Shown here in pieces: positions 1,113-25,068 of a stretch of DNA of 25,068 nucleotides. The translations under genes and the position numbers were made by a program. The notes beneath the pieces are model-generated. The model was given only the letters and a program-made list of their open reading frames with translations. It made no database searches and was not told where the DNA came from. The first letter of the stretch is position 1, and each line of letters opens with the position of its first letter. The stretch comes from an uncultured delta proteobacterium (lineage in GTDB: Bacteria; Desulfobacterota; Binatia; Bin18), in assembly GCA_963733195.1 (NCBI GenBank), contig CAVTCR010000035.1:1-25068 (forward strand), in the 5' to 3' direction.

Positions 1113-1121
1113 CTCATGCTA
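1113..1121. repeat. Left target-site duplication of the IS256 unit (CTCATGCTA)
   Basis: Abuts IRL; matches CTCATGCTG at 7378-7386 (8/9, first 8 identical). 8-9 bp duplications are typical of IS256. Confidence 0.85.
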
Positions 1122-1178
1122 GAGGTAATTTGAAAAGGTGTGGAAACAAGAGTCAGGCTGCGTATCTTCTCGGGTGAC
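1122..1178. repeat. IS256 left terminal inverted repeat
   Basis: GAGGTAATTTGAAAAGGTGTGGAAACAAGAGTCAGGCTGCGTATCTTCTCGGGTGAC; reverse complement aligns with 7321-7377 at about 42/58 columns by hand (shared blocks GTCACCC, GCCTGA, CACACCT, terminal CTC). Confidence 0.85.
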
Positions 1179-1222
1179 TTAACCCACTGGGCTCAAAGCC
1201 TGGGTAAAGAAGGAGGGACGCC

Positions 1223-2472
1223 ATGACACAAAAGAGCACTACACCAGAGCTGAAAGTCAGCAGCACGTGGGAGCACTTAGAAGACTGTGTTCGTGAACCC
1301 GTCCAACATTTTATTCAGGCGCTGTTGGAAGATGAGGTGGCAAAGTTATCGGGGCGTACGAAGTCAGCCCGACGAGAGGCCATCGATGCAACCCCAGAGT
1401 ATCACAACGGCTATGGCAAGCCCCGCCGCTTGAGCATGACCAGTGGAACTATTACCGTCGAGCTACCACGAGTCCGAGACGTGAACGAGCGCTTCGTGAG
1501 TCGGATGTTGCCATTGGTCAAGTGGAAGACCAAGGAGGTGGACGAGCTGCTACCCCAGCTCTCCCTGCATGGATTAGCCTTGGGCGATTTTGCATTAGCG
1601 CTACGTGGCCTCTTGGGGGATGGTGCGCCGTTATCTCCGGCCTTCTTGGTGCGACTCAAAGCGCAATGGCAGCAAGAGTATGCCGCATGGAAGCAGCGGC
1701 GGCTGGATGACTTGGAAGTAGTGTACCTCTGGGCGGATGGGCTGTATGTGAAAGCCGGGCTGGAAGATACCAAGGCAGCGCTGCTGGTGATGATTGGTGT
1801 GCTGACCAATGGCCAGAAAGTCGTCTTAGCCGTGGAGAGCGGACAGTGAGAGTCCAAGGAATTGTGGGGGATAATCTTACGGGACCTACGCAGACGGGAG
1901 CTGAAGCCCTGGCGGTGCACGATAGCCGATAGCCATCTAGGCTTATGGACCGCATTAGGCGAGCAATATCCGACCCTGGCGGAACAGTGGTGTTGGAACC
2001 ATAGGATGGTCAACGTCTTGGACGCGCTACCGAAGAAACATCAATCAGAGGCACGTACTCTCTTGGGTGCCATGCCCTATGCTGATACGCAGGCCGCCTG
2101 CGAGGCGCTCCGAGCCGAGTTCACCACTTGCTATCGGAAGCTGGCACCCAAAGCTGTGGAGCGGCGGGCGGATGATTGGGAACGGCTAGTGACCTTCTAT
2201 CAGTTTCCTCAGGCGCACTGGGTGCACGTGCACCTACGGACGACGAACATCGTGGAATCGCCATTCGCCACGGTACGGCTACGCACAACGGCAGCGAAAC
2301 GCTTCAAGAAGGTTGAGAACGCCACGGCCTTAATCTGGAAGATGTTGCAGGGGGCCGATTCGACCTTCCGGCGGCTCAAAGGAGCGGAGTTGTTGCCCGC
2401 TGTATATACCGGCACGCAGTATGTCGATGGTCAGCAGCTGATACAAGCACGCACCAGAGGATCGCTGCCTGA
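1223..2472 (+). pseudogene. IS256-family (Mutator) transposase, inactivated
   Basis: RBS AAGGAGG before ATG 1223; motifs NGYGKPRRL, YLWADGLY, CWNH, LRTTNIVES. In-frame TGA at 1847-1849 (likely CGA>TGA in Q-R-E-S), 6-bp duplication GTGCAC at 2222-2233, and an ...IAA-stop end at 2461-2472 reached only by a 1-nt shift near 2449. Confidence 0.9.
2461..2472. repeat. 12-bp direct repeat ATCGCTGCCTGA, left copy (second copy 7336-7347)
   Basis: Exact match seen on both sides of the cargo. Confidence 0.85.
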
Positions 2473-3541
2473 GTGCTGGGACGCAGGCCTTTTCCTTGCC
2501 CTGGCGAGTGCGAAGGAGTAAAGAAGCACCATGCACTGTGCGAGCTGTGGCTCCGACAATCCGGAGGGGACGAAGTTTTGCGGTGAATGTGGAGCCCCCA
2601 TCCACCCGCGCTGTCCGCAGTGTGGCTTTACGAATCTGCCCTCGACCAAGTTCTGTCGGGAGTGTGGTACGCCGCTCACGGGGCAGTCCTCTGCTTCGAG
2701 ATTCCCCTCACAAGCTCCTCACCTTGAGCCTCCTGTGCGCTACACGCCCAAACATCTAGCCGAACGCATCCGCGCGGAGCAAGCGGCATTGGAAGCACGC
2801 AGCGGCGCAGACGGGGAGCGCAAGACGATCACGGCCCTGTTTGCCGATCTCAAAGGCTCGACGGCCCTGATTGAAGGCCTTGATCCCGAAGAGGCACGAG
2901 CGATTATTGATCCCGCTCTGCAGCTCATGATGGACGCTGTGCATCGGTATGAGGGATATGTCGCGCAAGCGTTGGGCGATGGCATCTTTGCTCTCTTTGG
3001 CGCTCCCCTCGCCCATGAGGATCATCCCCAGCGGGCACTGTATGCCGCGCTGCGCATGCAAGAGGAGATGCACCGCTATGCCGACACGCTGCGAGCCAAG
3101 GGTTATCCATCTCTGCTGATGAGGGTGGGAATGAACACAGGGGAAGTCGTCGTCCGTTCGATCCGCAAAGATGATCTGCATACTGATACGTGCCGTAGGA
3201 CAATCGACGAATTTAGGCTCCGCATGGAGAGTCTGGCACGCCGGGTTAATTCTGCCTACACCCACAAACTCACGGAGGGCTACTTCGCGTTCAGAGATTT
3301 GGGGAAGACACAGATCAAAGGGGTGGAAGAGCCGCACAACATTTACGAAGTGCTGGGCGTGGGGTCGCTACGCACGAAACTTCAGATCGCTGTTCGTCGT
3401 GGCCTGACCCGCTTCGAGGGCCGCCAGAGTGAACTAGAACATCTCCAGCGGGCGCTAGAGCAAGCGAAAGCCGGCCACGGACAAATTGTCGGGGTCATGG
3501 GCGAGCCGGGCTTGGGGAAATCCCGCCTGTTCTATGAATTT

Positions 3542-3569
3542 GTAGGGGCACGGTGCGCCGTACTCCTAC
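3542..3569. repeat. GTAG-type REP-like palindrome inside the cyclase coding sequence
   Basis: GTAGGGGCACGG-TGCG-CCGTACTCCTAC; 12-bp arms with 10 Watson-Crick pairs; translated as VGARCAVLL. Confidence 0.7.
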
Positions 3570-4113
3570 TCGCGCGGCTGTCTGGTGATTGAAGCGTATT
3601 CCGTCTCGCATGGCAAAGCCTCACCCTATCTGCCGGTGATTGAATTGCTCAAGAGTTATTTTGACATCCAAGTCCAAGACGATGAACGCAAGCGACGGGA
3701 GAAAGTCGGCGGTAAAGTGTTAATGCTTGATCGCAGTCTGGAAGACACGTTGCCCTATCTCTTCTTCCTGTTAGGGATCGTTGAGCCGACTTCGCCGTTA
3801 CAGCAGATGGACGGGCAGATTCGGCGGTAGCGCATCCTGGAGGCGTTCAAGCGGATATTGCTTCGCGAGAGTCTCAACCAACCGCTCATCATGATCTTTG
3901 AAGACCTGCACTGGTTGGACAATGAGACGCAGGCCTTCCTGCAACTCTTGAGTGAGAGTGTCGCCACGGCCCGCATCCTCCTCCTCGTCACCTATCGCCC
4001 GGAGTATCAACAGAACTGGAGTGGCAAGACGTACTTCTCGCAACTGCGTCTTGATCCGCTAGGGCAAGAACACGCGGAGGAGATGCTTTCCGCCCTACTG
4101 GACGATAGTGGAT

Positions 4114-4173
4114 CCCTCTCTCTGTTCAGCCGGTCCTGAGCGGAGGCAAAGGAGAGAGGGAGAGGGTGAGGGT
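4114..4173. repeat. CCCTCTC/GAGAGGG-type palindromic repeat inside the cyclase coding sequence
   Basis: CCCTCTCTC (4114-4122) pairs perfectly with GAGAGAGGG (4152-4160), followed by AGAGGGTGAGGG; loop contains CCTGAGCGGAGGCAAAGG; introduces a TGA (4137-4139) in the reading frame. Confidence 0.6.
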
Positions 4174-4291
4174 AGGAACCGATGCGTTACAACCCCTCAA
4201 GCGCTTCATCCTGGACAAAACCGAAGGCAATCCCTTCTTCATGGAAGAGATTGTCCAGACGCTGCGCGAGCAAGGAGTCTTCTCCTCCGAC

Positions 4292-4319
4292 GCAGGGGCA
4301 CGGCGTGCTACGCCCCTCC
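4292..4319. repeat. Second degenerate GTAG-type REP-like copy, in frame in the cyclase gene
   Basis: GCAGGGGCACGGCGTGCTACGCCCCTCC, same length as and alignable with 3542-3569; translated AGARRATPL. Confidence 0.6.
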
Positions 4320-5442
4320 CAAGCGACCTCCGTCTGCCGACCACCGTACAAGGCGTGCTCGCTGCCCGCATGGATCGTCTGCCCGCGGAGGAGAAAGCTA
4401 TGCTGCAAACCCTGGCGGTCATCGGGCGGGAGTTCTCGTCCAGCTTAGTACGCAAAGTGGTACGCCAAGCAGAGGCAGACTTCCACCGCGTGCTCGCGCG
4501 GTTACAGGCGGCGGAGTTTGTCTATGACCAACTGGCCTTCCCGGAGGTGGAATACATCTTCAAGCACGCGCTGACTCAAGAAGTAGCCTACAATTTTGTA
4601 CTCCAGGAGCGACGTAAAGAGTTGCATGAGTGGGTGGCGCAGGCGATCGAAGCCCTCTGGCCTGATCAGGCCGAGGACCGCTGTAGTGAGTTGGCGTATC
4701 ATTACCGGCGCAGCGGCAATCTCTCCAAGGCGATCACCTATCTGCACCGCGCAGGGCAACAGGCCTTACGACGGTCCGCCTATCCCGAGGCGATCGACAC
4801 GATGCGGGAGGCCCTCGCGTTGCTAGCCACCCAGCCCGACTCTCCGGAGGGGGCGCGTCAAGAACTGGCCCTGCGGCTGACCTTAAGTCTCACTTTACGC
4901 ATGGCCCACGGCCTGAGCGCAGAGATGGAACGGGCGTACGCGCGTGCGCAGGCGCTCTGCGACGGGTCGGCGAGACGTCCCAACTCTTCTCTCTCTTGTG
5001 TGGATTACACTCAGTCTTTCTCATCAAGGGAGACTTCCACAGGATGCAGGAGGTGGCGCAACGCCTGGTGCAGATCGCCCGGGACACGGACAATGGGGCG
5101 TTTCTGGTTGAGGCCTATTCCAAGCTCGGTGCTACCGCATATGCACGCGGAGAGTTCTTGCAGGCCCGCGGCTATATAGAACAGTGCCTGCAGCGGTATG
5201 ATCCCGAGCACTACGGGAGCCTGGGGATTACGGCTGGTGGCGAGGTGCGGGCTATGGGTCTGTCGGTGTTGGCGATGGTGCTCTGGTGTTTGGGGTATCC
5301 CGACCAGTGATGAGCCTTGCCCGACTATGGCAGGGCCAGGGCAAGCAAGTCGACGCTCGGCAGCTACTAGCCGAGATCTACGGCTGGTTCGCCGAAGGGT
5401 TTGACACAAAGGACTTGCAAGAGGCGAAGGCATTGCTGGAGG

Positions 5443-7298
5443 GTGTGTCACGAACGCTCGACTGAAAGTTGAGCGGTGCTCTGGGAAAGATGAGGGCAGG
5501 CCCCTCGGAGCCGCCTTTCAGGAGGAGGCTTCAAACCGCCCCCGGCTGCTGCGTTTAAGAGGCGTGGTGGTGAACGCAGGGGGAAAAGGCGTGGCGGCGA
5601 CCACGTCAGGTAAGTTTCAAGGAGATGAGCGCAAGCGAACCGCTGAGGACGTAGCGAAAAAGCCAGACGTGGTCGAAACCAGGGGCGCTTCTAACTTCTG
5701 GGACAAGCCTGCGGGCAACCTGAGTACTGCGCAGGCGGCAACCGGTATATAGGCGGCATGACCTTGAGACAGGCTTTGCTAGGGAACGTGAGAACCTGAG
5801 CTCGCGATGGAAAGGGAAACCGACAAGTGGCAGACCCCACAAGTGGGAATACCAAAGCGCGAGCCAGGGGCGGAGTCGCTCGTAGTAGTGAGGAAGCATC
5901 TGTAATGGCTGTGGAGCGAAGGGGCGACATTATCGAGGGTGGTGATCCCAGCCAACCTCTGCGGAGGGAAGAGCTGGGGACATCGCCCAAGGCCTTTGCG
6001 ATACCCAAGCGCGCGGTCTTCGAGGCTTGGCAGCGGGTGAAGGCGAACCGGGGGGCGGCGGGGATAGACGGGGAGAGCCTGGCAGCATTCGAGCAGCAGC
6101 TGCGGGGGAATCTCTACCGCGTCTGGAACCGGCTGGTCTCGGGGAGCTATTTTCCGCCGCCCGTCAAGGAGGTCGGGATTCCCAAGGCCAGCGGGGGGAC
6201 CCGCCCGCTGGGGATACCGACCGTAGGCGATCGGGTGGCGCAGACAGTAGCGAAGATGGCCCTGGAGCCGCACCTGGAACCGCACTTTGACCCCGACTCG
6301 TACGGGTATCGTCCGGGCAAGTCGGCCAAGGGCGCGGTTGCAGTGACGCGGCAGAGGTGCTGGCGGTACGACTGGGTGGTCGAGTTTGATATCAAAGGAG
6401 CCTTTGACAATCTGGACCACGGGCTGCTGATGAAGGCGGTGCGCAAGCACACGGACTGTCGCTGGGTGGTGCTCTACGTGGAACGCTGGTTGCGGGCGCT
6501 GACCGTGACCGAGGCGGGCGAGGTGAAAGCGCGGCAGCGCGGCACGCCACAAGGTGGGGTGCTCGGGCCGCTGTTGCTTAATCTCTTCCTGCACTATGCC
6601 TTGGATCGCTGGCTGCGACGGGAGCTGCCGATGTGCCCGTTTGCGCGCTATGCGGATGACGGGGTGGTGCATTGCCGCACGGAGCAGCAAGCGCAGGAGG
6701 TGCAGCACCGACTCGCGGCCCGCGTGCGGGAGTGCGGGTTGGAGCTGCATCCGGACAAGACGCGGATTGTCTACTGCAAAGACAGCAATCGCGGGGGCGA
6801 CTATCCCACGATACAGTTTACCTTCCTGGGCTTCACGTTCCGACCACGGCGGGCGCAGAACCGCGCCGGCGAACTCTTTACGAGTTTCCTGCCGGGGGCG
6901 AGCCGCCCGGCCCAGCAGCGGATGCGGCAGCAGATCGCCCAGTGGCATCTGCCCCGCCAGACGACCGAGAGTCTTCGCACCTTCTCGACTCACTACAACG
7001 CCATTTTGGCTGGCTGGTGGCAGTACTACGGGAGTTTCTACCCGACCGAAGTGTGGAAAGTCTTTCGCCATTTCGACGTGACGCTCGCCTGGTGGGCCCG
7101 GCGGAAGTACAAGCCCCTTCGCGGGCATAAGCGCCGGAGTCGTCGCTGGCTAGCGAAAGTGTCGCGCCGGGAGTCGGAGCTGTTTGTCCACTGGCGGCTA
7201 TGGTATGGCATGGCTCGGTAAGGGGAGCCGTGTGAGTCGAGAGGCTCACGCACGGTTCTGCGAGCGGCTGAGGGGGCAGTTCCCTTGGCCGACTCACC
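5443..7298 (+). mobile_element. Group II intron, IIB / bacterial class D (RmInt1-like), 1,856 nt
   Basis: 5' GTGTG at 5443; domain V GAGCCGTGTGAGTCGAGAGGCTCACGCACGGTTC (7225-7258) with AGC triad; domain VI with bulged A 7292 and 3' end ACC; removal restores ...LLE-E-L-S-stop; EBS1 candidate CTTCTA (5688-5693) in the loop of stem 5679-5685/5695-5701 pairs with exon end TGGAGG (5437-5442). Confidence 0.93.
5974..7221 (+). CDS. ltrA: Group II intron reverse transcriptase/maturase, no endonuclease domain (~415 aa; start uncertain)
   Basis: VKANRGAAGIDG, SGSYFPPPV, RPLGIPTVGDR, SYGYRPGKSA, FDIKGAFD, GTPQGG, RYADD, FLGFTF, ends LFVHW; closely resembles class D intron proteins such as that of RmInt1. 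Confidence 0.95.
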   Translation: MGTSPKAFAIPKRAVFEAWQRVKANRGAAGIDGESLAAFEQQLRGNLYRVWNRLVSGSYFPPPVKEVGIPKASGGTRPLGIPTVGDRVAQTVAKMALEPHLEPHFDPDSYGYRPGKSAKGAVAVTRQRCWRYDWVVEFDIKGAFDNLDHGLLMKAVRKHTDCRWVVLYVERWLRALTVTEAGEVKARQRGTPQGGVLGPLLLNLFLHYALDRWLRRELPMCPFARYADDGVVHCRTEQQAQEVQHRLAARVRECGLELHPDKTRIVYCKDSNRGGDYPTIQFTFLGFTFRPRRAQNRAGELFTSFLPGASRPAQQRMRQQIAQWHLPRQTTESLRTFSTHYNAILAGWWQYYGSFYPTEVWKVFRHFDVTLAWWARRKYKPLRGHKRRSRRWLAKVSRRESELFVHWRLWYGMAR

Positions 7299-7320
7299 AG
7301 TTATCCTGAAGCAGAGAACC

Positions 7321-7377
7321 GTCACCCAAGAGTATATCGCTGCCTGATTCTATTTACACACCTATTGCCAAGATCTC
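7321..7377. repeat. IS256 right terminal inverted repeat, overlapping a transposase-like tail (7306-7347, LKQRTVTQEYIAA-stop)
   Basis: GTCACCCAAGAGTATATCGCTGCCTGATTCTATTTACACACCTATTGCCAAGATCTC; complementary to 1122-1178; immediately followed by the duplicated target CTCATGCTG. Confidence 0.85.
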
Positions 7378-7473
7378 CTCATGCTGAGGCCTTCGTCAAG
7401 CTCACCTGTGCCTGCGGCACTGGCGCAGGCAGGACAGGCGACGCCGCAGCAGCGGCGAAGTCGAAGCACGAGC
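7378..7473. repeat. Right target-site duplication (7378-7386) and composite REP-like palindrome at the 3' end of treY
   Basis: Outer arms CTCATGCT (7378-7385)/AGCACGAG (7465-7472); CTTCGTC/GTCGAAG; inner TGCCTGCG (7409-7416)/CGCAGGCA (7424-7431); CGCCGC (7442-7447)/GCGGCG (7452-7457). Confidence 0.65.
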
Positions 7474-7485
7474 CTGCCTCTTAAC

Positions 7486-10400
7486 TTAATGCCATTGTTC
7501 CAGGAGCGCGACGGGAAAATGAGCCAACACCTCTCCTAACGCAAGGCAGCAACGGCCTTCTCGATGGTACGTGGTGACCGGCTCTCCCGTAAAGAGATTT
7601 CGGTAGTCATGATCATTGCTATCCGGTGGCAAAACCAGCCACGTCTCTGCCCAGACCTCAGCACCGACAGGAAGCACCAGCTGGATCAGGGATAACCTGC
7701 GTCAGCAGACGCGGTGCCACCACGATGAGCGGCTGGTGCCTATGTCGTCGCGCGAACGCGCAGAGGTGTTTCTGTCGACGTCCGATCGCCTCTACCGGTA
7801 CGTACTCACCAGCACGAAAAAGGTCGGGATGTTGCCGACGATAGGTGAGCGCTTGTTGCGTCACGTACAGCTTGATGCGGCCATCTTCCCACGTCTCCAG
7901 AAGTTCCTGAGTGAGAGCAGGACGATTGTCTCGTGCAGCATTGAGCTTCACTTGCAAATTGTCTAATAACTGTCGTCGCTGATCGTAGTCAACTGGGCGG
8001 CGATTGTCGGGGTCAACTAGACTAAAATCCCAAAGTTCCGTACCCTGGTAAAGGTCGGGTACCCCAGGTGTCGTCAACTTGAGCACTGTTTGTGATAGCG
8101 AGTTGTACATTCCATAGCGGGCGATCTTGGTACGGAACTGGTGGAAATCGTCACGAAAGAGAAAATCGTCGAGCACCCGCCCGACAAATTCGTGCAACGC
8201 GTCGTCGTACGGTTCATTGGGGTTGATCCAACTGGTGTTAACCTTCGCCTCTTTGGTGGCCTTGCGCATGTATGCCTGTATGCGCTGCTTGAAGATGTTG
8301 TAATCGTCCGCGGTCATTGAGATTAGTGGCCACACACCTAGCACGGTTTGATAGAACAGATATTCGTCATTACGATCTGGTGCAAATTGGCCATCTATCT
8401 GCGCTTTCCGTTTCTTGTACTGTTGGCTCCAGCGTCTCAGCAGCGTTCGCCATTCGTAGGGTAACTCCGAGAGGACGTTGATCCGTGCGCGTACATCTTC
8501 GCTCCGCTTCGTATCGTGAGTTGTAGTGGCCAAGAGCGTGTGAGGCCAATACTTACGGCGTTCACCACACCGGGTGTGAAACGTGACCAGCGACGTTCCG
8601 AAGCAATCGGGTGAACTGCCTACCTCATTGAGCGACACCAGTCGGTTGTAAAGATAAAAGGTAGTGTCCTCGACCCCTTTGGCCATGACTGGACCCGTGT
8701 ATTGTTGAAATTTCATCACGAATGCATGCTGCATCTGCCGATCTTCCTCTGTAGCCCCAGCAGGAAATCGCAACAGCAGAACATCGCGGACATAATTGAA
8801 GATCGAGACGTCTCGCGCAGGATTCTTCCGTTTGCCGTATGCCACGGCCTGCTCGACAATGGTCTGGTCTCGCTCACTGACCTCGTTGTCGGTGATATAA
8901 GTCCGGTAGACCGGAAAACAGGCGATGATCTCACGGAGCGTATGGGTAAGGCTGTTGAGCGTAAAATCCCGAGCGTGACGGTTGCGTTCCGAGAGACGGT
9001 GTAGTTGGTGCCCAAGTACGTTGATCTCGCTGGACAACGCCACCTGCATAATAAGTTTTTTATTCTCGTATACCAGGTCGGCAAAGCTCTGTTGGGAACG
9101 GGTGAAACGCTTATAGATGTCGGTGAGTAGTTTCTCATTATCAGTATCGATAAAAATGCCATTAAGGTCAGCAAGAAAATCATAGCCGGTACTGCCGTGA
9201 ACCGGCCAGGACTCAGGAAGGAAATCACCTGCGCTGGAGATCTTCTCCAACACAACATAACAGGGCAACTCAGCTGACAGTGTAACAGAGTCGCCCTGGC
9301 CCTGCGTCGCTACGTGGTCCGCCCGTGCGAGCAGCGAGGGCACTTCTGGATAGGTCTTGGAGCGGAGCGCAAGCGCGAGCGCCTGCTGCAGACGCCACAG
9401 ATATCGAGCTGGATCATAGAGCCCATCGACATGGTCGATCCGCAGCCCGGTGACCTTTCCGTCAGCGCACAAGCACAGGGCGAGTTGATGCGTTGCCGCA
9501 AACACAAGCGGATCTTCCGTACGAACTGCGGCCAGTTCGTTCACGTCAAAGAATCGTCGATAATTGATTTCCTCCGCCGCCGTACGCCAGTAGGAGAGAC
9601 GATAGGCTTGATCGGTCAAGAGACCATCGAGGAAATCGAAGCTACGTGGTTCACCTTTCTTACCGTTAAAGAACTGAACATTTTCTGCTACGAAGGCGAG
9701 AATCTCAGGTGTGGTTGTCGTCACGGTTGCGAGGCGTTTCTTAATGATCTCTTTTTCGCGATTGCGCTCAATGACTTTGTCACGATCCGTCTCGGTGCGT
9801 AGGGGGAGGTGACTGAGGGCAGTAATGATGCTGCGAAACTCCAACAGTTGTGGGTGGTCAGGGCCAAGTTTTCGTTCGAGATCTCCAAGTCGGTGGAGGA
9901 GGACGGCCATCGAAGGGCGCGGCGCAATCGGCAGATGGTAATCACCATACTTGAGAAAAAACGCTCCCTCCTCGTAACTGAGGGTCAACTCTTGATTCTC
10001 TAACACGCTGCCATACTGATCGCCCAAGATCGGTAGCAACACTTTGTTTGCCAACTCCGCTTTAACTGGTGTCCAGTCAATGTCAAAACACGCAGCATGG
10101 AGTGAGCTTGGGCCATTTTCCAATACATCTGCCCACCAAACATTACTGCTTTTAGCAATACCCATGTGGTTGGGAACGAGATCAAGGATATGTCCCATAC
10201 TACGACGCTGCAAAGCATGCACAAAGCTATCGTAGTCTGCTTCCTTCCCCAGCTCTGGGTTGAGAGCGTTGTGGTCAATGACATCGTAGCCGTGCGGACT
10301 CCCCGGACTGGCCTTGAAATAGGGCGAACAATAGCAATCACTAATTCCTAAAGTGTGCAGATACGGAACTAATCGAGCTGCATCGGCAAATGTGAACGAC

Positions 10401-10511
10401 GCATTAAATTGCAACCGGTAGGTCGCTAAGGGAATGCGAGCGACGACGGTCTTCTCAGAGGGCCCTTTCTTCGCCTTCCGAGGCCGCAGTAATGGGGCTG
10501 ACTAACGTCAT
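7486..10511 (-). CDS. treY: Malto-oligosyltrehalose synthase (GH13), with two apparent 1-nt frameshifts
   Basis: [97 protein letters not shown] precedes ATG 10511, which is one base out of frame (~10495); C-terminus ...[10 protein letters not shown] (7486-7677) is in another frame after ~7672. Confidence 0.93.
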
Positions 10512-16311: not shown

Positions 16312-19300
16312 TTGAATTTCTTTTTTTCTTCTCACGACCTACGCTCCACCTTCCGTTCATGGTTCACCGCTCCTCTACAGTCCGCAGAGCCTATTCGGGC
16401 AGAACTCTTTAGCATCGAGCGTTTGGAGCAACACGCCGAGAGCCTTGCGGCTGCTCAACCTGTCACTACTACAACCCGTTATACGCGCCGGCTGTTGCCA
16501 CGGGTCCAGGAGAACGGGCGTGTCCTCCTGGAGTCTTACCGCACAATCGCTCAGGCGATCCGTGAGGAACGGGCGATCACGCCTGCGGCAGAATGGCTGG
16601 TGGACAATTTCCACATCGTGGACGAACAACTCCGTGAGATCCGTGACGACTTACCACCCGGCTACTATCGACAACTGCCGAAGCTGGCCGAGGGGCCTCT
16701 TAAGGGGTATCCGCGTGTCTTCGGGATGGTTTGGGCGTTCGTCGCGCATACCGATAGTCGGTTTGACCCGGAGGCGCTACGGCGGTTCGTACGTGCCTAT
16801 CAGCGCGTACAACCGTTGACGATCGGAGAACTCTGGGCGGTCGCGATTACGTTGCGAGTGGTGCTCGTCGAAAATCTCCGACGCCTCACGGAGCAAATGG
16901 TGCGTGGACGAGCGGCACGTCAGACCGCCGACGCTCTCGCTGATAATCTACTTGGACTCGAAAGCCGATCAACTGCACCGGGAGTGACAACTCTTCGGCT
17001 CCTTGAAGGTGCACCTTTGGTAACTGCCTTCGCCGTCCAACTCGTTCTGCGGCTACGGGATCAAGACCCGACGGGGATGCCAGCACTTGTCTGGTTAGAC
17101 GAGCGCCTTGCAGCTCAAGGGACGACAGCTGATGAAATCGTTCGCGTCGAGCATCAGCGGCAGGAGGCGATGAACGTAACGGTTCGCAACGTAATCACAA
17201 GCATGCGGCTGATGTCGACCTTCGACTGGGCAGAATTTTTTGAGAGTGTTAGTCTGGTTGACGAAGTGCTTCGTGCCAACAGCGATTTTGCTGCAATGGA
17301 CTTCGCCACCCGCGACCGATACCGACATGCGATCGAAGACCTGGCTCGAGGGTCCCGGCACTCAGAACTCGAAGTCGCTCGACGGGTCATCGTCCAAACC
17401 AAGCGTGCTGCAACTCAGAGTCAGGGAGTCAATGCTCTCTTCAAAGACCGGCAGGCAGAGCCGGGCTACTATCTTATCTCGAAAGGGCGGGCTGGCTTTG
17501 AGCGGGAACTCGGCTTCCGCGTCCCCGCTCAACGTTGGCTACGACGTGCCTACGCCACCGAGGCGACGTCTGGATACCTTGGAACGATTACCGTTGTAGG
17601 TGGAATCATCCTTGCCCTGCTGCTTCTCACTGCGAGTAACTCTGGTGTGAGTGCAGCGGGCCTGTTCTTACTTGGGCTCTTTGCTGCCGTGCCGGCTTTG
17701 GACTTGGCTGTCACGTTGGTGAATCGCGTCGCCATAGCCTTACTTGAGCCACGGGCGTTACCCAAGCTGGAACTCCGCGATGGAGTACCAGCGAGTCTGC
17801 GGACCATGATCGTCGTGCCAACGCTCCTGACTAGCCAAGCCGACATTGAGGAGCAGATCAAACAGCTTGGAAGTTTCCTACCTAGCGAATCTTGACGCCA
17901 ACATTTATTTCGCACTCCTCTCCGACTGGACGGACGCGCCCTCGGAAACAATGCCGAACGACGACGAACTACTAGCGGCGGCGGTCGCGGGTATCGCGCG
18001 TCTCAATCAACGCCACGGATCAGCTCCGGACGGAAGAGCGCGTTTTTTTCTGTTGCACCGCCGACGTGTCTGGAACGAGAGCGAGCAGAAGTGGCTCGGC
18101 TGGGAGCGCAAACGGGGCAAGCTGCATGAACTGAACCGTTTGCTGCGAGGTGCAAAAGACACCACCTTTATCTCGACAGGTGACCACACACACCAAGTCC
18201 CAGCTGACGTGCGGTACGTCATCACCCTTGATGCTGACACGCGGCTACCGAGGGGCACGGCGTGCAGATTGGTCGGCACCATGGCCCACCCGCTTAATCA
18301 GCCAAGGTTTGACCCGCAGGTCGGCCGAGTCGTGGAAGGGTACGCGGTGCTTCAGCCGCGCGTCACACCGACGCTGCCGACCGACCGCGAGGGATCTCTG
18401 TTCCAGCGTATCTTCTCGGGACCGGCCGGTATTGACCCATACGCCTCCGCTACCTCTGATGTCTACCAGGACCTACTCGCCGAAGGGTCGTATACCGGCA
18501 AAGGGATCTATGATGTCGATGCGTTCGAAGCAGCCCTGGCTGGGCGGGTACCCGACAATGCTTTACTAAGTCATGACCTCTTTGAAGGGACGTTCGCGCG
18601 GGCGGGGCTCGTTTCCGACATCGAAGTCTTCGATGAGTTTCCTTCACACTATCAGGTCGCTGCGGCTCGTCAGCATCGCTGGGCGCGCGGCGACTGGCAG
18701 TTGCTGCCATGGATCTTCGGGCATGCTCGGGACCAGAGCGGTGGTCGCGCCCGTACGTCGATCCCACCGATGGATCGTTGGAAGATGCTCGATAACCTCA
18801 GACGTACGCTGTCGCCCCCAGCCGCATTTCTGACTTTAATTGCCGGCTGGACGCTCCCGTCTGCCTCACCCTTACTCTGGACGAGTTTTGTTCTCGTTAC
18901 CCTCGCTTTTCCTGTCCTGTTGCCTCTCTTCAGTGACCTCCTACCACGTTCCCACGGGATCTCAAAACGGAACTACCTCCGCACCATTGGTACTGACCTT
19001 GGTTTCGCTGCATCACACTTTTCACTTGCAGTGATTTTACTTGCCCACCAGGCATGGTTGATGACCGACGCGGTCGTACGGACGCTCTTCCGCTTATACG
19101 TGACCCGGCGCAATCTGCTCGAGTGGACAACTGCCGCACAAGCGAAAACCGGGGCCGCCCTCACCCTAAGCAGCATGTATCGCTGGATGAGCGGGGGAGT
19201 AGTGTTCGCCGCTGCCGCGGGTGCCATCGTAGCGTTGGGACGTCCGCAAGCGTTGCCAGTTGCAGTGCCGTTCGTGCTTCTCTGGCTACTGTCTCCCGTC

Positions 19301-22300
19301 GTCGCGCGTTGGATCAGCCTCCCTCCGCGCGCAGCCGGAACTGAGCCCCTTTCGCTAGATGACGCACGTGCGCTCCGGCTTACTGCGCGTCGAACGTGGC
19401 GCTTCTTCGAAACCTTTGTCCGCCCCGAGGACCATATGCTTCCTCCCGACAATTTTCAGGAAGAACCGACATCGGTCGTGGCCCATCGCACGTCACCAAC
19501 GAACATCGGGTTGTATCTGTTGTCTGCCTCTGCCGCCCATGATTTTGGCTGGCTGGGGACCTTTGCGGTTGTCGAAAGGCTCGAAGCCACGCTCGACACA
19601 ATGAATAGCTTGGAGCGTTTTCGTGGTCATTTCTATAACTGGTATGCGACGCGCGATCTTCGCCCGCTAGACCCTAAATATGTGTCCACTGTCGATAGCG
19701 GTAATCTCGCTGGTCATCTGCTTGCGCTCGGACAGGCGTGCAAAGAAATCATCGACCGCCCAGTGCTTGGCCCTCACATACTTTCTGGAATTGCGGATGC
19801 TGTCCTTCTGGTCCGCGAATCGGCTCGTGCGATCATTGACGATCGACGTACGCAAACAGTCACCCATAAACACCTGGACGAGGCCCTTGATGCTCTAACT
19901 GCGGCACTAACTTCAGTCCCTGTAACACCAAGGGACTGGAGCTTGCGATTCGCAACACTCGAAGCCCACGCTCAGACCCTAGTGGATATTGCCCGCACCT
20001 TGACTGCCGAACGAGGTGGGGGTGCTGAGATTGAAGTTCTTGCCTGGGCCGAGGCAGTCCGGGTAGCTATTGAGAGCCATGCGCGTGACCTTGACGCGAT
20101 TCTTCCTTGGGCCCGGCGTATCTCGCAGGACGACGCCTTGCCTTGGATGCTGACTCCGGACTCGGCAGCCGAGTGGCCCACGATCGAGCGTCTCAGTGTT
20201 TCGCTCCCTTCCCTGGCCGATATGTCAGATCATTGTGAGGCTATTATCCATGAACTCACGACTCTCCGTGCACGCCTGGCGACCGAAGGGATCTCTCAAA
20301 GTGAGACCCTTACCCGAATTGATGCCTTCGTGGAGAGCCTTACACGTTCTGCCGCCGCCTCTGGTGCGCTGGTCCGCCGTCTTACGATTCTCGCTCAGCG
20401 TGCCAAGACAATGTTCGATGCCATGGAGTTTGGCTTTCTTTTTGACCCGACGCGGAAGCTTTTCGCGATCGGCTATCGTGTCACTGATAGCAGTCTAGAC
20501 TCGAATTGTTACGACCTGCTCGCCTCTGAAGCACGTCTTGCTAGCTTCATCGCAATTGCCAAAGGCGATGTACCACCGACGCATTGGTTCCATCTTGGTC
20601 GTCCGCTAACACCCGTAGACCGGGGGGCAGCGCTTATTTCTTGGTCAGGGTCGATGTTCGAGTATTTGATGCCGTTGTTGGTAATGCACGCTCCGCCGGA
20701 AAGCCTGTTAGACCAGACGTACCGCTGTATCGTCCGCCGCCAGCAAAAGTATGGAGCCGAGCGTGGCGTGCCGTGGGGAATTTCAGAATCAGCGTACAAC
20801 GCACGCGATGTGGAGTTGACCTACCAGTATGCGAATTTTGGCGTGCCAGGCTTGGGGCTCGAGCGCGGACTCAGTGAAGACGTGGTCGTTGCTCCCTACG
20901 CGACGGCACTGGCGGCGATGATTGACCCGGATGCGGCAGTGCAGAACTTCGCGCGCCTCGCTGAAGCTGGTGGCAGCGGGCGTTATGGCTTTTACGAGGC
21001 GCTCGATTACACGCCGACCCGGCTGCCGGAGGGTGAACAGGTTGCGGTTGTGCGCGCCTATATGGCGCACCATCAAGGGATGTCGCTGGTGGCGATCGCC
21101 AATGTTCTCCATGAGGGGATTATGCGCGCCCGCTTCCACGCTGAACCGATCGTGCAGGCAACTGAATTACTACTCCAAGAACGAACTCCACGGAACGTCG
21201 CCGTCGCCCGGCCGCGGGCTGACGAGGTGCAAGCTGCTGCTCATGTGCGCGATTCCATTCCACCAGTTTTTCGCCGTTTCACCACGCCACATAACTCGAT
21301 CCCCCCCACCCACTTGCTCTCCAACGGGCGCTACGGAGTGATGGTCACAACCGCAGGCTCTGGCTATAGTCGCTGGCGTCAGCTTGCGGTCACGCGGTGG
21401 CGCGAGGACACTACACGCGATTGCTGGGGGACCTACGTTTTCCTTCGTGATGGACGCAGCGGTGCGGTCTGGTCGGCAGCGTACCAACCAAGTGGAGTCG
21501 AACCGGATACCTATGAAGTGACTTTTGGTGAAGATCGTGTGGAGATACAGAGGCGTGATGGAGCGATAACGACCACACTCGAAGTAGTTGTGTCGCCCGA
21601 AGACGATGCGGAGGTGCGCCGGGTGTCGATCTCTAACCTGGGGACGCAGACTCGCGAGATCGAACTCACCTCCTACGCCGAAATCGTGTTGGCACCACCT
21701 GCTACCGATGCCGCCCACCCCGCGTTTTCTAACCTGTTTGTGCAAACCGACTTTATCCCTGCGCTCAGTGCTTTGCTCGCAACCCGCCGGCCCCGTTCTC
21801 ATGACGAGCCACAGATTTGGGCCGCACATGTGGTAGTCGTCGAGGGAGAAACCGTGGGCGGGGTGCAATATGAAACTGATCGCGCCCGGTTTCTTGGTCG
21901 CGGACGCGGGATCCGGACACCGATGTCGGTGATCGACGGTCGTCCGCTCTCCAACACGGTCGGCGCAGTGCTTGACCCGATCGTCAGCCTCCGGCGTCGT
22001 GTCCGGCTAGCGCCGGGTGCTACCGCTCGGGTCACATTCTCCACAATTGCCGCGGCATCGCGCGAGGAGGCACTAACTCTGGCCGACAAATACCATGACC
22101 CAATGACGTTTGAGCGTGTAGTCACGCTGGCGTGGACGCAGGCTCAGGTCCAGTTGCACCATCTCGGTATTGGCCATGATGAAGCTCATCTTTTTCAGGA
22201 CTTCGCCAGTCGGATCCTATACTCGGACCCTCTGCTCCGGCCATCATCTGAAGTGCTCGCCCGTAATACCCAAGGGCCATCAGCGCTGTGGGCACGCGGG

Positions 22301-25068
22301 ATTTCTGGCGATATCCCAATCGTCCTCGTGCGGATCGATGAATCCGAGGATCGGGAGATCGTCCGGCAGTTACTCCGCGCCCACGAATATTGGCGGATGA
22401 AGCAGTTGGCAGTCGATATCGTGATCCTAAACGAAAAAGCTACCTCCTACGTTCAGGATCTTCAGGCCGATCTAGAGGCCCTTGTCCGTACCAGCCAGTC
22501 ACGCGTACGTCACGAAGGTCATGAACCGCACGGGAGTGTATTCATTCTACGAGCCGATCTCCTGTCGGCGGAAGAGCGGGTGCTTTTGCAGACTGCCGCA
22601 CGCGCAGTGCTCTGGAGTCGCCGCGGGACGCTGGCCGAGCAGACCGCACGCCGGCGACCATTCCAGGCTGATGCTATTCCTATGCCTCGATCACGACCCA
22701 CGTCTCAACCCGTGGAGGTTCCGCCTCGACAGCCCGACCTCGAGTTTTTCAACGGCCTCGGCGGCTTCACTATGGACGGCCGTGAGTATGTAACAATCTT
22801 GGGTGAGGGGCAGTGGACACCGGCACCGTGGATCAATGTCGTTGCTAATTCCTCCTTTGGCTTTCAGGTTTCTGAATCGGGCGCAGGCTATACCTGGTCG
22901 CTCAATAGCCGTGAGAATCAACTCACTCCCTGGTCGAACGATCCAGTCAGCGACCCGCCGGGCGAGACGATCTACATCCGGGACGAGGATAGTGGTGAGC
23001 TCTGGGGTCCGACGGTGCTGCCAATCCGCGAAGAAGCCTGGCCGTATATTGCCCGACACGGCCAGGGTTACAGTCACTTCGAGCACACCTCACACGGTAT
23101 TTCTCTTACCCTTCTGCAATTCGTGCCGCTCGAGGATCCGATCAAGATTTCACGGCTTACGATCGAAAATCGGTCGGGCCAAACGCGGCGGCTCTCGATA
23201 ACGGCGTATGTCGAGTGGGTGCTTGGCGTATCACGCAGCGTCTCTGCCCCCTTTGTAGTTACCGAGATTGACACGGCAACCGGAGCGCTGCTCGCTCGCA
23301 ATTACTGGAACAGCGAGTTTGGTGATCGCGTGGCGTTTGCAGATCTTGGCGGACGCCAGACTGCGTGGACGGGTGACCGGACAGAGTTCCTTGGTCGAAA
23401 CGGGACACTCGATCATCCAGCATCGCTCGAACGTGGAGGCTCACTTTCGGGAAAAGTCGGTGCTGGTCTTGACCCATGCGGAGTTCTCCAGACGACGGTT
23501 GAGCTGCGTTCACAAGGTCGTACTGAGGTTATCTTCTTGCTCGGCGAGACGGCGACCACGGAGGAAGCACGAGCGCTGCTCACGCGTTACCGCACAGCAG
23601 ATCTCGATGCGGTTTTACGCGCAGTGGAGAACCATTGGGACGATGTGCTTAGCGCGGTGCAGGTGAGGACACCTGACCGTTCTCTAGATGTGATGCTGAA
23701 CCGCTGGCTGCTCTACCAAACTTTTGCTTGTCGCGTGTGGGCACGAGCGGCGTTCTATCAGGCCGGTGGCGCGTACGGCTTTCGCGACCAACTCCAAGAC
23801 ATCATGGCGATTACAGTCGCCAAACGCGAAGTTGCACGTGAGCATGTGCTTCGCGCCGCCGCGCGGCAGTTCATCGAGGGAGACGTTCAACATTGGTGGC
23901 ATCCACCATCTGGGCGCGGCGTGCGAACTCGTATCTCTGATGATCTACTCTGGCTGCCCTATGCAGTCATCCACTATCTTGAAGTCACTGGTGATGTCAG
24001 TCTCCTCGACGAGATTGTTCCTTTCCTTGAAGGCCCGGCTCTTGCGGAAAATCAGCACGATGCGTATTTCGCGCCGAGTGTATCCCAACAGTGCGGCACC
24101 TTGTTCGAGCATTGCGCGCGTGCACTCGACCGCAGCTTGGCGGTTGGCAGCCACGGCCTCCCGCTGATCGGCGCGGGAGACTGGAATGACGGAATGAACC
24201 GGATTGGCCAAGAAGGGAAAGGTGAGAGCGTCTGGCTCGGCTGGTTCCTGCACACTACCCTCTGGGAGTTTGCCCGGTTGGCCGACGCACGAGGGGAACG
24301 GAAACGTGCCGAAACTTGGCGCCGCCATGTCCGCGCGCTGAAATCTGCGATCGAGCGCGAAGCGTGGGACGGCGATTGGTATCGACGCGCCTACTTTGAC
24401 GACGGGACGCCACTTGGCTCGGCCACGAATAATGAATGCCGTATCGACTCGATTGCTCAATCCTGGGGGATTATTTCTGGTGCTGCAGATCCGGCACGCG
24501 GCGCACGAGCGATGGCAGCCGTCGAAGAATACCTGGTCCATCGTGGTGACGGCCTCATCCTCCTCTTTACCCCACCATTCGATCGCATTCCCCAGGACCC
24601 GGGATACATCAAAGGGTACCTTCCCGGCGTCCGTGAGAACGGTGGCCAATACACGCATGCAGCGATCTGGTCGGTGCTAGCGTTCGCGGCGCTCGGCGAC
24701 GGAGACAAGGCTGGTGAACTCTTCGCACTATTGAACCCTATCAATCATGCGAGCACGCGTGCTGGTATTCACCGCTACAAGGTCGAACCCTATGTAGTCG
24801 CAGGGGACATTTATGCTGAACCTCCCCACGTCGGTCGTGGCGGGTGGACATGGTACACAGGATCCGCGGGGTGGATGTACCGAGCCGGTATTGAGTGGAT
24901 TCTCGGGTTCCGTTTGCGAGGCACGAGGTTGTATTTGGACCCTTGCATTCCGCGTGCTTGGCGTGGCTTTCGACTCGATTTTCGCTATCACTCAGCGCGT
25001 TACGAGATAGCGTTGAAAATCCGCACGGCATGACACGGGGGGTTGCGTCTGTTGAGCTTGACGGTGCG
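16312..25068 (+). CDS. ndvB: Cyclic beta-1,2-glucan synthase (Cgs/NdvB/ChvB type, ~2,900 aa), 3'-truncated by the window, two apparent 1-nt frameshifts
   Basis: [57 protein letters not shown] (glycosyltransferase); [27 protein letters not shown] (cyclisation region); [32 protein letters not shown] (GH94 phosphorylase). Frames join at ~17866-17870 ([11 protein letters not shown]) and ~25012 ([22 protein letters not shown]). Confidence 0.93.

Follow-up and report, generated by a model that had tools for sequence, protein, structure and literature searches.

Transporter insertion sequences (tISs), in the defining passages of the literature on them, are derivatives of insertion sequences (ISs) with passenger genes inside their inverted repeats (IRs) (PMC3129680, PMC7986276, PMC9330008). 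The IS256 family is the prokaryotic branch of the Mutator superfamily and is described in the text of the 2014 survey of prokaryotic Mutator-like transposases by Guerillot et al. as one that "contain[s] only ISs" (PMC3942029). Here we analyse a complete 25,068-bp contig of a Binatia draft genome (CAVTCR010000035.1, the whole of which is called the window), in which an IS256-type unit at positions 1122-7377 encloses a whole cyclase-AAA_16-TPR signalling gene, the cargo, between its transposase and its right end. The unit is very probably a decayed noncomposite transposon, a tIS that arose from an ordinary 1.38-kb IS256-family IS and whose cargo moved with it as a unit. The comparison supports this reading well, and passenger-carrying ISs are a known kind. 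A full-text literature search returned no IS256-family element with a passenger, the table of surveyed elements in PMC3942029 lying outside its reach, nor did it return anything that ties IS256 to cyclase-AAA-TPR genes.

The closest described systems each share part of this organisation. Canonical IS256-family ISs, represented by IS256 and by the 1.38-kb loci L057, L058, L059 and L062, have the same PF00872/NF033543 transposase, homologous ends and 8-9-bp target-site duplications. They lack the second, ~3-kb gene with no part in transposition, and at about 1.4 kb they are far shorter than the unit, which measures 4.4 kb (6.26 kb with an intron); the family form of about 1.2-1.5 kb with a single open reading frame (ORF) and no passenger is thus not that of the unit. 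In the canonical relatives the transposase stop lies inside the right terminal inverted repeat (IRR). Only the inner 42 nt of the proximal IRR are present in the unit. Typical IS256 inverted repeats are 24-41 bp long, and the ~57-nt arms found here are longer. With tISs, a concept whose founding paper is reportedly that of Siguier et al. in 2009, the unit shares a single transposase, the lack of flanking IS copies, a passenger between the transposase and one IR, and one duplication. It differs from them in that the passenger is unusually large (a ~1000-aa STAND signalling protein) and probably exchanged between copies, and in that the element is multicopy and found in several genera.

Composite transposons such as Tn4001, which is flanked by IS256, also mobilise a host gene by an IS256-type transposase. 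The unit, however, has one transposase gene, one pair of ends and no second IS; instead of two complete flanking copies it has on its right side only the last 72 nt of an IS, and its cargo cannot stay behind when a single IS moves. Plant Pack-MULEs are Mutator-like elements with captured host gene fragments and are usually nonautonomous. In these, too, host coding sequence between Mutator-type terminal repeats is multiplied by transposition, but the element described here has a whole gene and its own transposase, and no shared descent of the capture is implied. One-ended mobilisation of the ISEcp1/ISCR type is similar in that the proximal end is lost or bypassed and neighbouring DNA is taken along, whereas the unit closes with a true IRR of the same IS, which is conserved and joined at one fixed junction in every copy, and not with a variable surrogate.

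Ends, transposase and cargo of the unit

The genome of the window is referred to as G000 (a draft of 6.95 Mb in 87 contigs, of which the window is contig C35), and G001, G003, G013, G016 and G029 are other genomes; C denotes a contig and L a locus. The left terminal inverted repeat (IRL) occupies 1122-1178 on the plus strand, with a profile match reaching 1185 (nhmmer, E=2.4e-12). It begins GAGGTAAT at 1122, and the left target-site duplication CTCATGCTA (1113-1121) stands directly before it. The complete right end spans 7306-7377 on the minus strand (nhmmer, E=3.4e-16; alignment to the canonical end of L058), with the IRR proper at 7321-7377, and consists of 42 nt homologous to the transposase 3′ end followed by the outer 30 nt. 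Its tip, AAGATCTC, closes at 7377 and is directly followed by the right target-site duplication CTCATGCTG (7378-7386), with which a REP-like repeat begins at its 5′ side. The two duplications match at 8/9 positions, an agreement with a chance of ~1e-4, and the 8-mer CTCATGCT is identical in both.

A reading made earlier from the sequence only had paired these two ends and their flanking repeats, and both pairings hold. Compared without gaps, IRL and the reverse complement of 7321-7377 are equal at 33/57 positions, more than in any of 200,000 pairs of random 57-mers drawn from the window (maximum 30). The arms of the window also align with nine IRL-type and 13 IRR-type ends of the same genome into one ~57-nt consensus. 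The pair was established by alignment and profile, not by inverted-repeat listing; it is not among the 25 longest inverted repeats printed by a repeat search of the window. Imperfect terminal inverted repeats at both tips, here with ~57-nt arms homologous to the ends of cargo-free relatives, and target-site duplications of 8-9 bp (8/9 in the window copy and 8/8 in the copy on G013 C201) are both traits of the IS256 family. The sizes previously given also agree with ours, the intron at 5443-7298 being 1856 nt long and the unit 6256 bp with it or 4400 bp without it. The order of the unit is IRL, transposase, 58-nt spacer, zinc-ribbon/cyclase/AAA_16/TPR gene and IRR, with no second transposase inside.

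The transposase is a pseudogene at 1223-2521 on the plus strand (PF00872, 1.2e-42, covering residues 10-382). It has an in-frame TGA at 1847-1849, and a single-base shift of frame ahead of the canonical stop (2470-2472) lets its ORF run on to 2521, with the canonical QRIAA ending, followed by the stop, in another frame. An intact relative in G013 (81% identical) scores 271 bits on NF033543, "IS256 family transposase" (cut-off 150), in keeping with a transposase of the IS256/Mutator family.

The cargo starts nine bases past the end of the transposase ORF. Its first exon (2531-5442, plus strand) has Pfam matches to a double zinc ribbon, a class III cyclase, AAA_16 (a STAND ATPase) and TPR. The second exon lies beyond the intron at 7299-7309 on the plus strand; judged by intron-free junctions, which read E-L-x-stop, it completes a GAG codon and adds Leu, Ser and the stop TGA (7307-7309). 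The spliced frame therefore ends E-L-S-stop a few bases before the IRR, so that the cargo fills the space between transposase and right end almost exactly. This gene, too, has become a pseudogene: it contains four or more frameshifts as well as a stop at 3828-3830. A tblastn search with an intact 909-aa homologue from G013 recovers it in frames 2, 3, 2 and 1, with the C-terminal motif in frame 3. The window copy is dead, its transposase broken by a stop and a frameshift and its cargo by the changes just described. The long neighbouring ORFs of the window are intact (918, 759 and 2395 aa), and the breaks in transposase and cargo are therefore unlikely to be general sequencing error. The sequence-only reading had overlooked this decay, as well as the inner piece of the old IRR that is left beside the transposase and the position of the intron inside the cargo coding sequence.

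Probable capture of the cargo and movement as a unit

Searching one genome per species with a relative's intact transposase, we kept 80 loci (53-81% identical), which belong to Nitrospira, Binatia, Acidobacteriota, Dehalococcoidia, Gemmatimonadota and further groups. The IRR lies within ~100 nt of the transposase end in 77 of the 80, in elements of ~1.38 kb; the exceptions are L056, which bears a cargo, L061, which has no IRR, and L076, where the contig ends. Cargo-free L058 and L059 have perfect 8-bp duplications, and a cargo-free element of 1395 bp is present in G029, which belongs to another family of the same class. The IRR of canonical elements contains the transposase stop TGA; the sequence reads GTCGCCGCCTGA, and 30 terminal nt come after it. 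The window and G013 C598 follow this canonical sequence up to the TGA at 2470-2472 and then diverge into a shared 58-nt spacer (2473-2530, plus strand), which stands where the old IRR had its outer half and leads to the start codon of the cargo. The spacer is kept in all cargo-bearing copies, among them G013 C598, C201 and C189.

The inner part of the ancestral right end survives at 2431-2472 on the plus strand, where alignment with four cargo-free relatives identifies 42 nt that close at the canonical transposase stop, the outer 30 nt being gone. The earlier statement that the left IR has no partner after the transposase is therefore correct for a complete end and incorrect for this remnant. 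Its last part (2448-2472) is 76% identical to 7323-7347, and in a pairwise alignment the 48 nt at 2425-2472 and the 49 nt at 7299-7347 are equal in 30/49 aligned columns.

These junctions are not confined to the window. BLASTN matches spanning 2442-2674 occur in seven other contigs of the genome, and a search of 41 genomes gave matches at E 1e-20 or better in 14. Both the transposase-spacer-cargo junction and the cargo-IRR junction recur, at 73-80% identity, at other loci of the genome and in three other genera of the same family, represented by G013, by G003 C488, which has the same order of parts, and by G016 C121, a deletion derivative. G013 has three copies. On C598 the transposase is intact (404 aa) and the cargo frame stays open over 909 aa, as far as the contig reaches; on C201 the cargo is intact (1209 aa) and the transposase frameshifted; C189 bears the third copy. 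When 73 distinct transposases are placed in a tree, the three that are full-length and cargo-bearing group together as a single clade (support 0.928) within the cargo-free sequences.

It could be argued that an ordinary 1.4-kb IS inserted here and that the cyclase gene entered between transposase and IRR afterwards. In favour of this is the identity of the cargo to that of the window, 72% for G013 C598 and down to 35-38% for G013 C201 and C189, which is far below the ~80% transposase identity among cargo-bearing copies; the cargo can thus change after insertion, probably by recombination with paralogues. We nevertheless regard this order of events as very unlikely, since it would require separate, identical captures at other loci and in other genera, which is implausible, and since the cargo-bearing transposases are one clade. 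The genome also has no cargo-free copy: BLASTN and profile searches gave 30 ends at E<1e-3 (11 left-type and 19 right-type), which all fit one ~57-nt consensus, and opposed ends are never closer than 3.7 kb. Of the two routes that the sequence-only reading had left side by side, movement of the unit with its cargo agrees with the recurring junctions and duplications; entry of the gene at this locus does not, and the gene would have entered once, in an ancestor.

An assembly chimera joining paralogous repeats, with some of the frameshifts being collapse artefacts, is also very improbable, although the setting would allow for it. The genome has 171 members of the cargo gene family and 30 IS ends, the 87-contig draft is 93% complete with 4.5% contamination, the 25-kb contig begins inside another IS, and no read support was obtained. 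Of the 22 public sequencing runs listed, none has >12% of the sampled words of the window, and no RNA run with such words is among them. Contigs from four of these runs were short and mostly 90-97% relatives of the group II intron, and the few identical pieces cover 1463-1670, 1787-2011, 5213-5376 and 7219-7328. Against a chimera, the parts come in the same order where other loci, and three other genomes, were assembled on their own, a matching duplication would not come from a chimera, and the intact 918-, 759- and 2395-aa ORFs indicate a low general indel error.

We compared nine IRL...IRR pairs, 3.8-8.1 kb apart, seven of them in this genome and two in relatives. Six of the nine cargo-bearing pairs have duplications of their own of 6/8 or better: 8/9 in C35, C25 and C12, 7/8 in C66, 6/8 in C34 and 8/8 in G013 C201 (GTTGGCCG). 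Mismatched combinations of left and right flanks (n=72) reach at most 5/8. Cargo-bearing copies at different sites with different duplications, which the earlier reading had suggested looking for, are therefore present, and its view that both ends derive from one insertion event is borne out by the matching duplication and the recurring junctions. A passenger unrelated to transposition inside one IR pair with a single transposase, and copies of the whole unit with their own duplications at different sites, are what is seen in a tIS.

The same comparison bears on the idea that the window holds what is left of two unrelated IS copies, one a transposase copy whose right end has decayed and the other, 4.9 kb away, reduced to its IRR, with flanks that match by chance. 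Solo and truncated ends are common in this genome, as the excess of IRR-type over IRL-type ends (19 against 11) indicates, and the duplication is 8/9 and not perfect. This is nevertheless very unlikely given the small chance of such a match, the five other pairs that match and the low values of all 72 controls. Spread by segmental duplication or recombination of copies that merely include IS ends, to which the cyclase tandem arrays (C1, C55, C81) and the scatter of IS-linked cargos in a paralogue tree might point, is extremely unlikely because every copy stops precisely at its IR tips, the flanks differ, and each copy is marked by a short direct repeat of its own, which is the signature of transposition and not of segmental duplication.

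Several points count against a tIS that moved as a unit. No duplication was found in three of the nine pairs (C84, C81 and G003 C488), three of the duplications are 8/9 and imperfect, and the register (8 or 9 bp) varies between copies. There is no empty site among the 43 copies of the REP-like repeat or at the relatives' loci of the neighbouring gene, and the nearest loci of this right-hand neighbour, in G001 and G003, are only ~70% identical at the protein level. In the four public runs no read or contig bridges 2430-2540 or 7377/7378, and at no junction are there at least 31 letters on both sides, so that the assembly of the window copy rests on the contig itself. No intact transposase of the element's family occurs on any contig of the genome, and activity here would therefore be historical. 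Finally, we infer transposition, circle formation and the non-use of the inner remnant from sequence comparison.

With these points in mind, the history of the tIS may be proposed as follows. In an ancestral member of one bacterial family, the 58-nt spacer and a cyclase-AAA_16-TPR (STAND-type) gene would have replaced the terminal 30 nt that follow the transposase stop, with a complete right end just past the cargo stop. This distal end repeats the final 42 nt of the transposase gene, and because of this second copy a composite of two ISs is the likeliest precursor. Capture by way of such a composite reduced by deletions, or by template switching at the two TGA triplets, is speculation. The proximal remnant lacks its terminal half, and the transposase would pair IRL only with the distal IRR; with the outer half of the proximal end missing, the cargo would have to travel with each move. 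Each transposition would then carry the 3-kb gene and make the usual 8-9-bp duplication, and the route would be copy-out-paste-in through a circle, as outlined for IS256 (PMC7986276). Later the element may have multiplied in the genome and reached the at least four genera in which it is now found, while the cargo was probably swapped with chromosomal paralogues. We infer that the gene was captured once and that paralogues later recombined with it within junctions that stayed fixed.

On this history, the loss of the outer half of one end suffices to turn an IS into an obligate gene carrier, and the capture event can be traced to the base against cargo-free relatives. The intact G013-type transposase, which lies at 6672-7886 of L056, would form with IRL, the inner remnant and the distal IRR a defined system for studying which parts of an IS256 end are required in cleavage.

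One related locus was left unclassified after being considered as an independent cargo form. L061 (8001-14100 of a Binatia-labelled record) has a sister transposase, lacks the outer IRR right after the stop and has a shortened right junction 4.8 kb downstream. Most probably this locus was once a cargo-bearing relative and has decayed, and its label "free" in the transposase tree is inaccurate.

The cargo gene family and probable exchange between copies

The first exon of the cargo closes with a motif (5313-5442, plus strand, from translation and tblastn) that ends LLAEIYGWFAEGFDTKDLQEAKALLE and that a very large gene family of STAND type shares as its conserved C-terminus. It has 176 tblastn matches in the genome, 171 of them reaching the motif end, and 5301-5442 has >100 BLASTN copies at the nucleotide level. 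The "140-bp repeat" that had been described before the intron does recur, but as a separate repeat it does not stand, being the coding C-terminus of this 171-copy family. For 5301-5442 a structured RNA (fold z-score -2.7), a miniature inverted-repeat transposable element and an attC-like site were likewise rejected.

The best NCBIfam match of the cargo is TIGR03903, at 618 bits below the cut-off of 706. In a comparison with anti-phage proteins (PADLOC), only the cyclase domain (~150 aa) resembles PycC, the protein of a winged helix-turn-helix (wHTH) cargo has no match, and no match to Pycsar or another known defence system extends over the cargo length. As the similarity is limited to the cyclase domain, no defence role is claimed.

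The association of the family with IS ends is close at the right side. Fifteen of the 19 right-type ends lie directly after the C-terminal motif (counting the window, where the intron stands between), two follow a shortened motif and two have none. Thus ~10% of the family (15/171 motif copies, plus remnants) is still joined to an IS end. Many members of the family have short tandem repeats right after the stop (CATTGAG-type heptamers, GTCTAGA-type units), and others overlap the start of the next member (TGATG) in tandem arrays. Cyclase genes stand four in a row on C1 and three in a row on C55. Two are enclosed by one 8.1-kb pair of ends (C81:115082-123184), and single IRRs are preceded by four cyclase genes (C1:1-18468) and by two (C22:1-5761). 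Since such arrays are enclosed by or precede the ends, the cargo may grow by tandem duplication.

The content of the unit varies between copies inside constant borders. The cargo of G013 C201 has the same spacer and a different N-terminus, without the zinc ribbon, and the spacer is homologous even between copies whose cargo N-termini differ. C25 (L001 769-5285 and 110-661) is a transposase-less copy with an 8/9 duplication, an intact 1088-aa wHTH-AAA_16-TPR gene and a small, oppositely oriented secreted-protein ORF; a TIR-domain gene stands just outside the element. In G003 C488 (L050 3452-5728) and G000 C28 (~39786-40090), and thus in two genera, most of the cyclase gene has given way to a PAS-HisKA-HATPase histidine kinase, and only the last ~20 motif residues are left before the IRR. 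A nucleotide tree of 52 paralogues (FastTree, read for its topology only) has the cyclase genes that are linked to an IS in scattered places; no direction of events is drawn from it.

We put forward only tentatively, and consider doubtful, the broader idea that the element is a bacterial counterpart of Pack-MULEs, a vehicle dedicated to one large, fast-diversifying STAND family, with paralogue exchange mediated by two handles. If this were true, the handles would be the spacer after the transposase stop on the left and the 130-nt C-terminal coding motif by the IRR on the right. The transposon would then disperse and shuffle sensor variants, of which cyclase, wHTH and histidine-kinase forms are the cargos seen, and could have seeded part of the 171-copy expansion. 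This would be a possible route by which large STAND/cyclase signalling families spread and diversify within genomes and between genera.

The group II intron and the insertion site

The intron in the cargo is a group II intron in sense orientation (5443-7298, plus strand). It starts GTGTG, agreeing with the 5′ GUGYG of such introns, and has the ribozyme domains (RF01999 at 5492-5611, 111 bits; RF00029 at 7223-7298, 56 bits) and a reverse transcriptase/maturase ORF at 5827-7221 on the plus strand (RVT_1 and GIIM; TIGR04416, 394 bits, cut-off 300). Its borders are precise, both being fixed by intron-free sites on C12, C34, C66 and C25, and place it inside the cargo coding sequence between ALLE and EL-stop. 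One contig in public run X2 joins 5430 to 7299 with 12 other letters between them and corresponds to an intron-free relative. The intron occupies the same position in three of the 171 motif copies: the window, C3:89027, which has an internal deletion, and C1:67620, which has an insertion, so that only the window copy is full length. Splicing, if it occurs, restores the cargo reading frame.

The unit sits at the 5′ edge of a ~60-bp REP-like repeat (7378-7439, with the sequence TTCGACAAGCTCACCTGTGCCTGCGGCACTGGCGCAGGCAGGACAGGC). BLASTN finds this repeat 43 times in the genome, with further copies in G013; the other repeat copies have unrelated left flanks. The window copy inserted at CTCATGCT at the edge of this repeat, and the intron, which targets the C-terminal motif, entered later. 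To the left of the unit there is another IS, followed by the contig end. This IS (1-991; PF13701 DDE_Tnp_1_4, 3.3e-55) is cut by the contig start, has copies of 77-86% identity on C45, C48, C65 and C81, and is separated from the IS256-type unit by 130 bp.

The right-hand neighbour (7658-10414, minus strand) is an alpha-amylase-family, TreY-like gene of 918 aa, compared with 1004 aa in G001 and 1011 aa in G003; its 3′ end may be shortened or diverged beside the repeat and the transposon. The corresponding loci of G001 and G003 have TreS-like and OtsB-like genes downstream and neither an IS nor a cyclase gene, which agrees with insertion of the whole unit, the synteny being too weak for an empty site. 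At the other side of the window, near the contig end, the 2395-aa ORF occupies 17846-25033.

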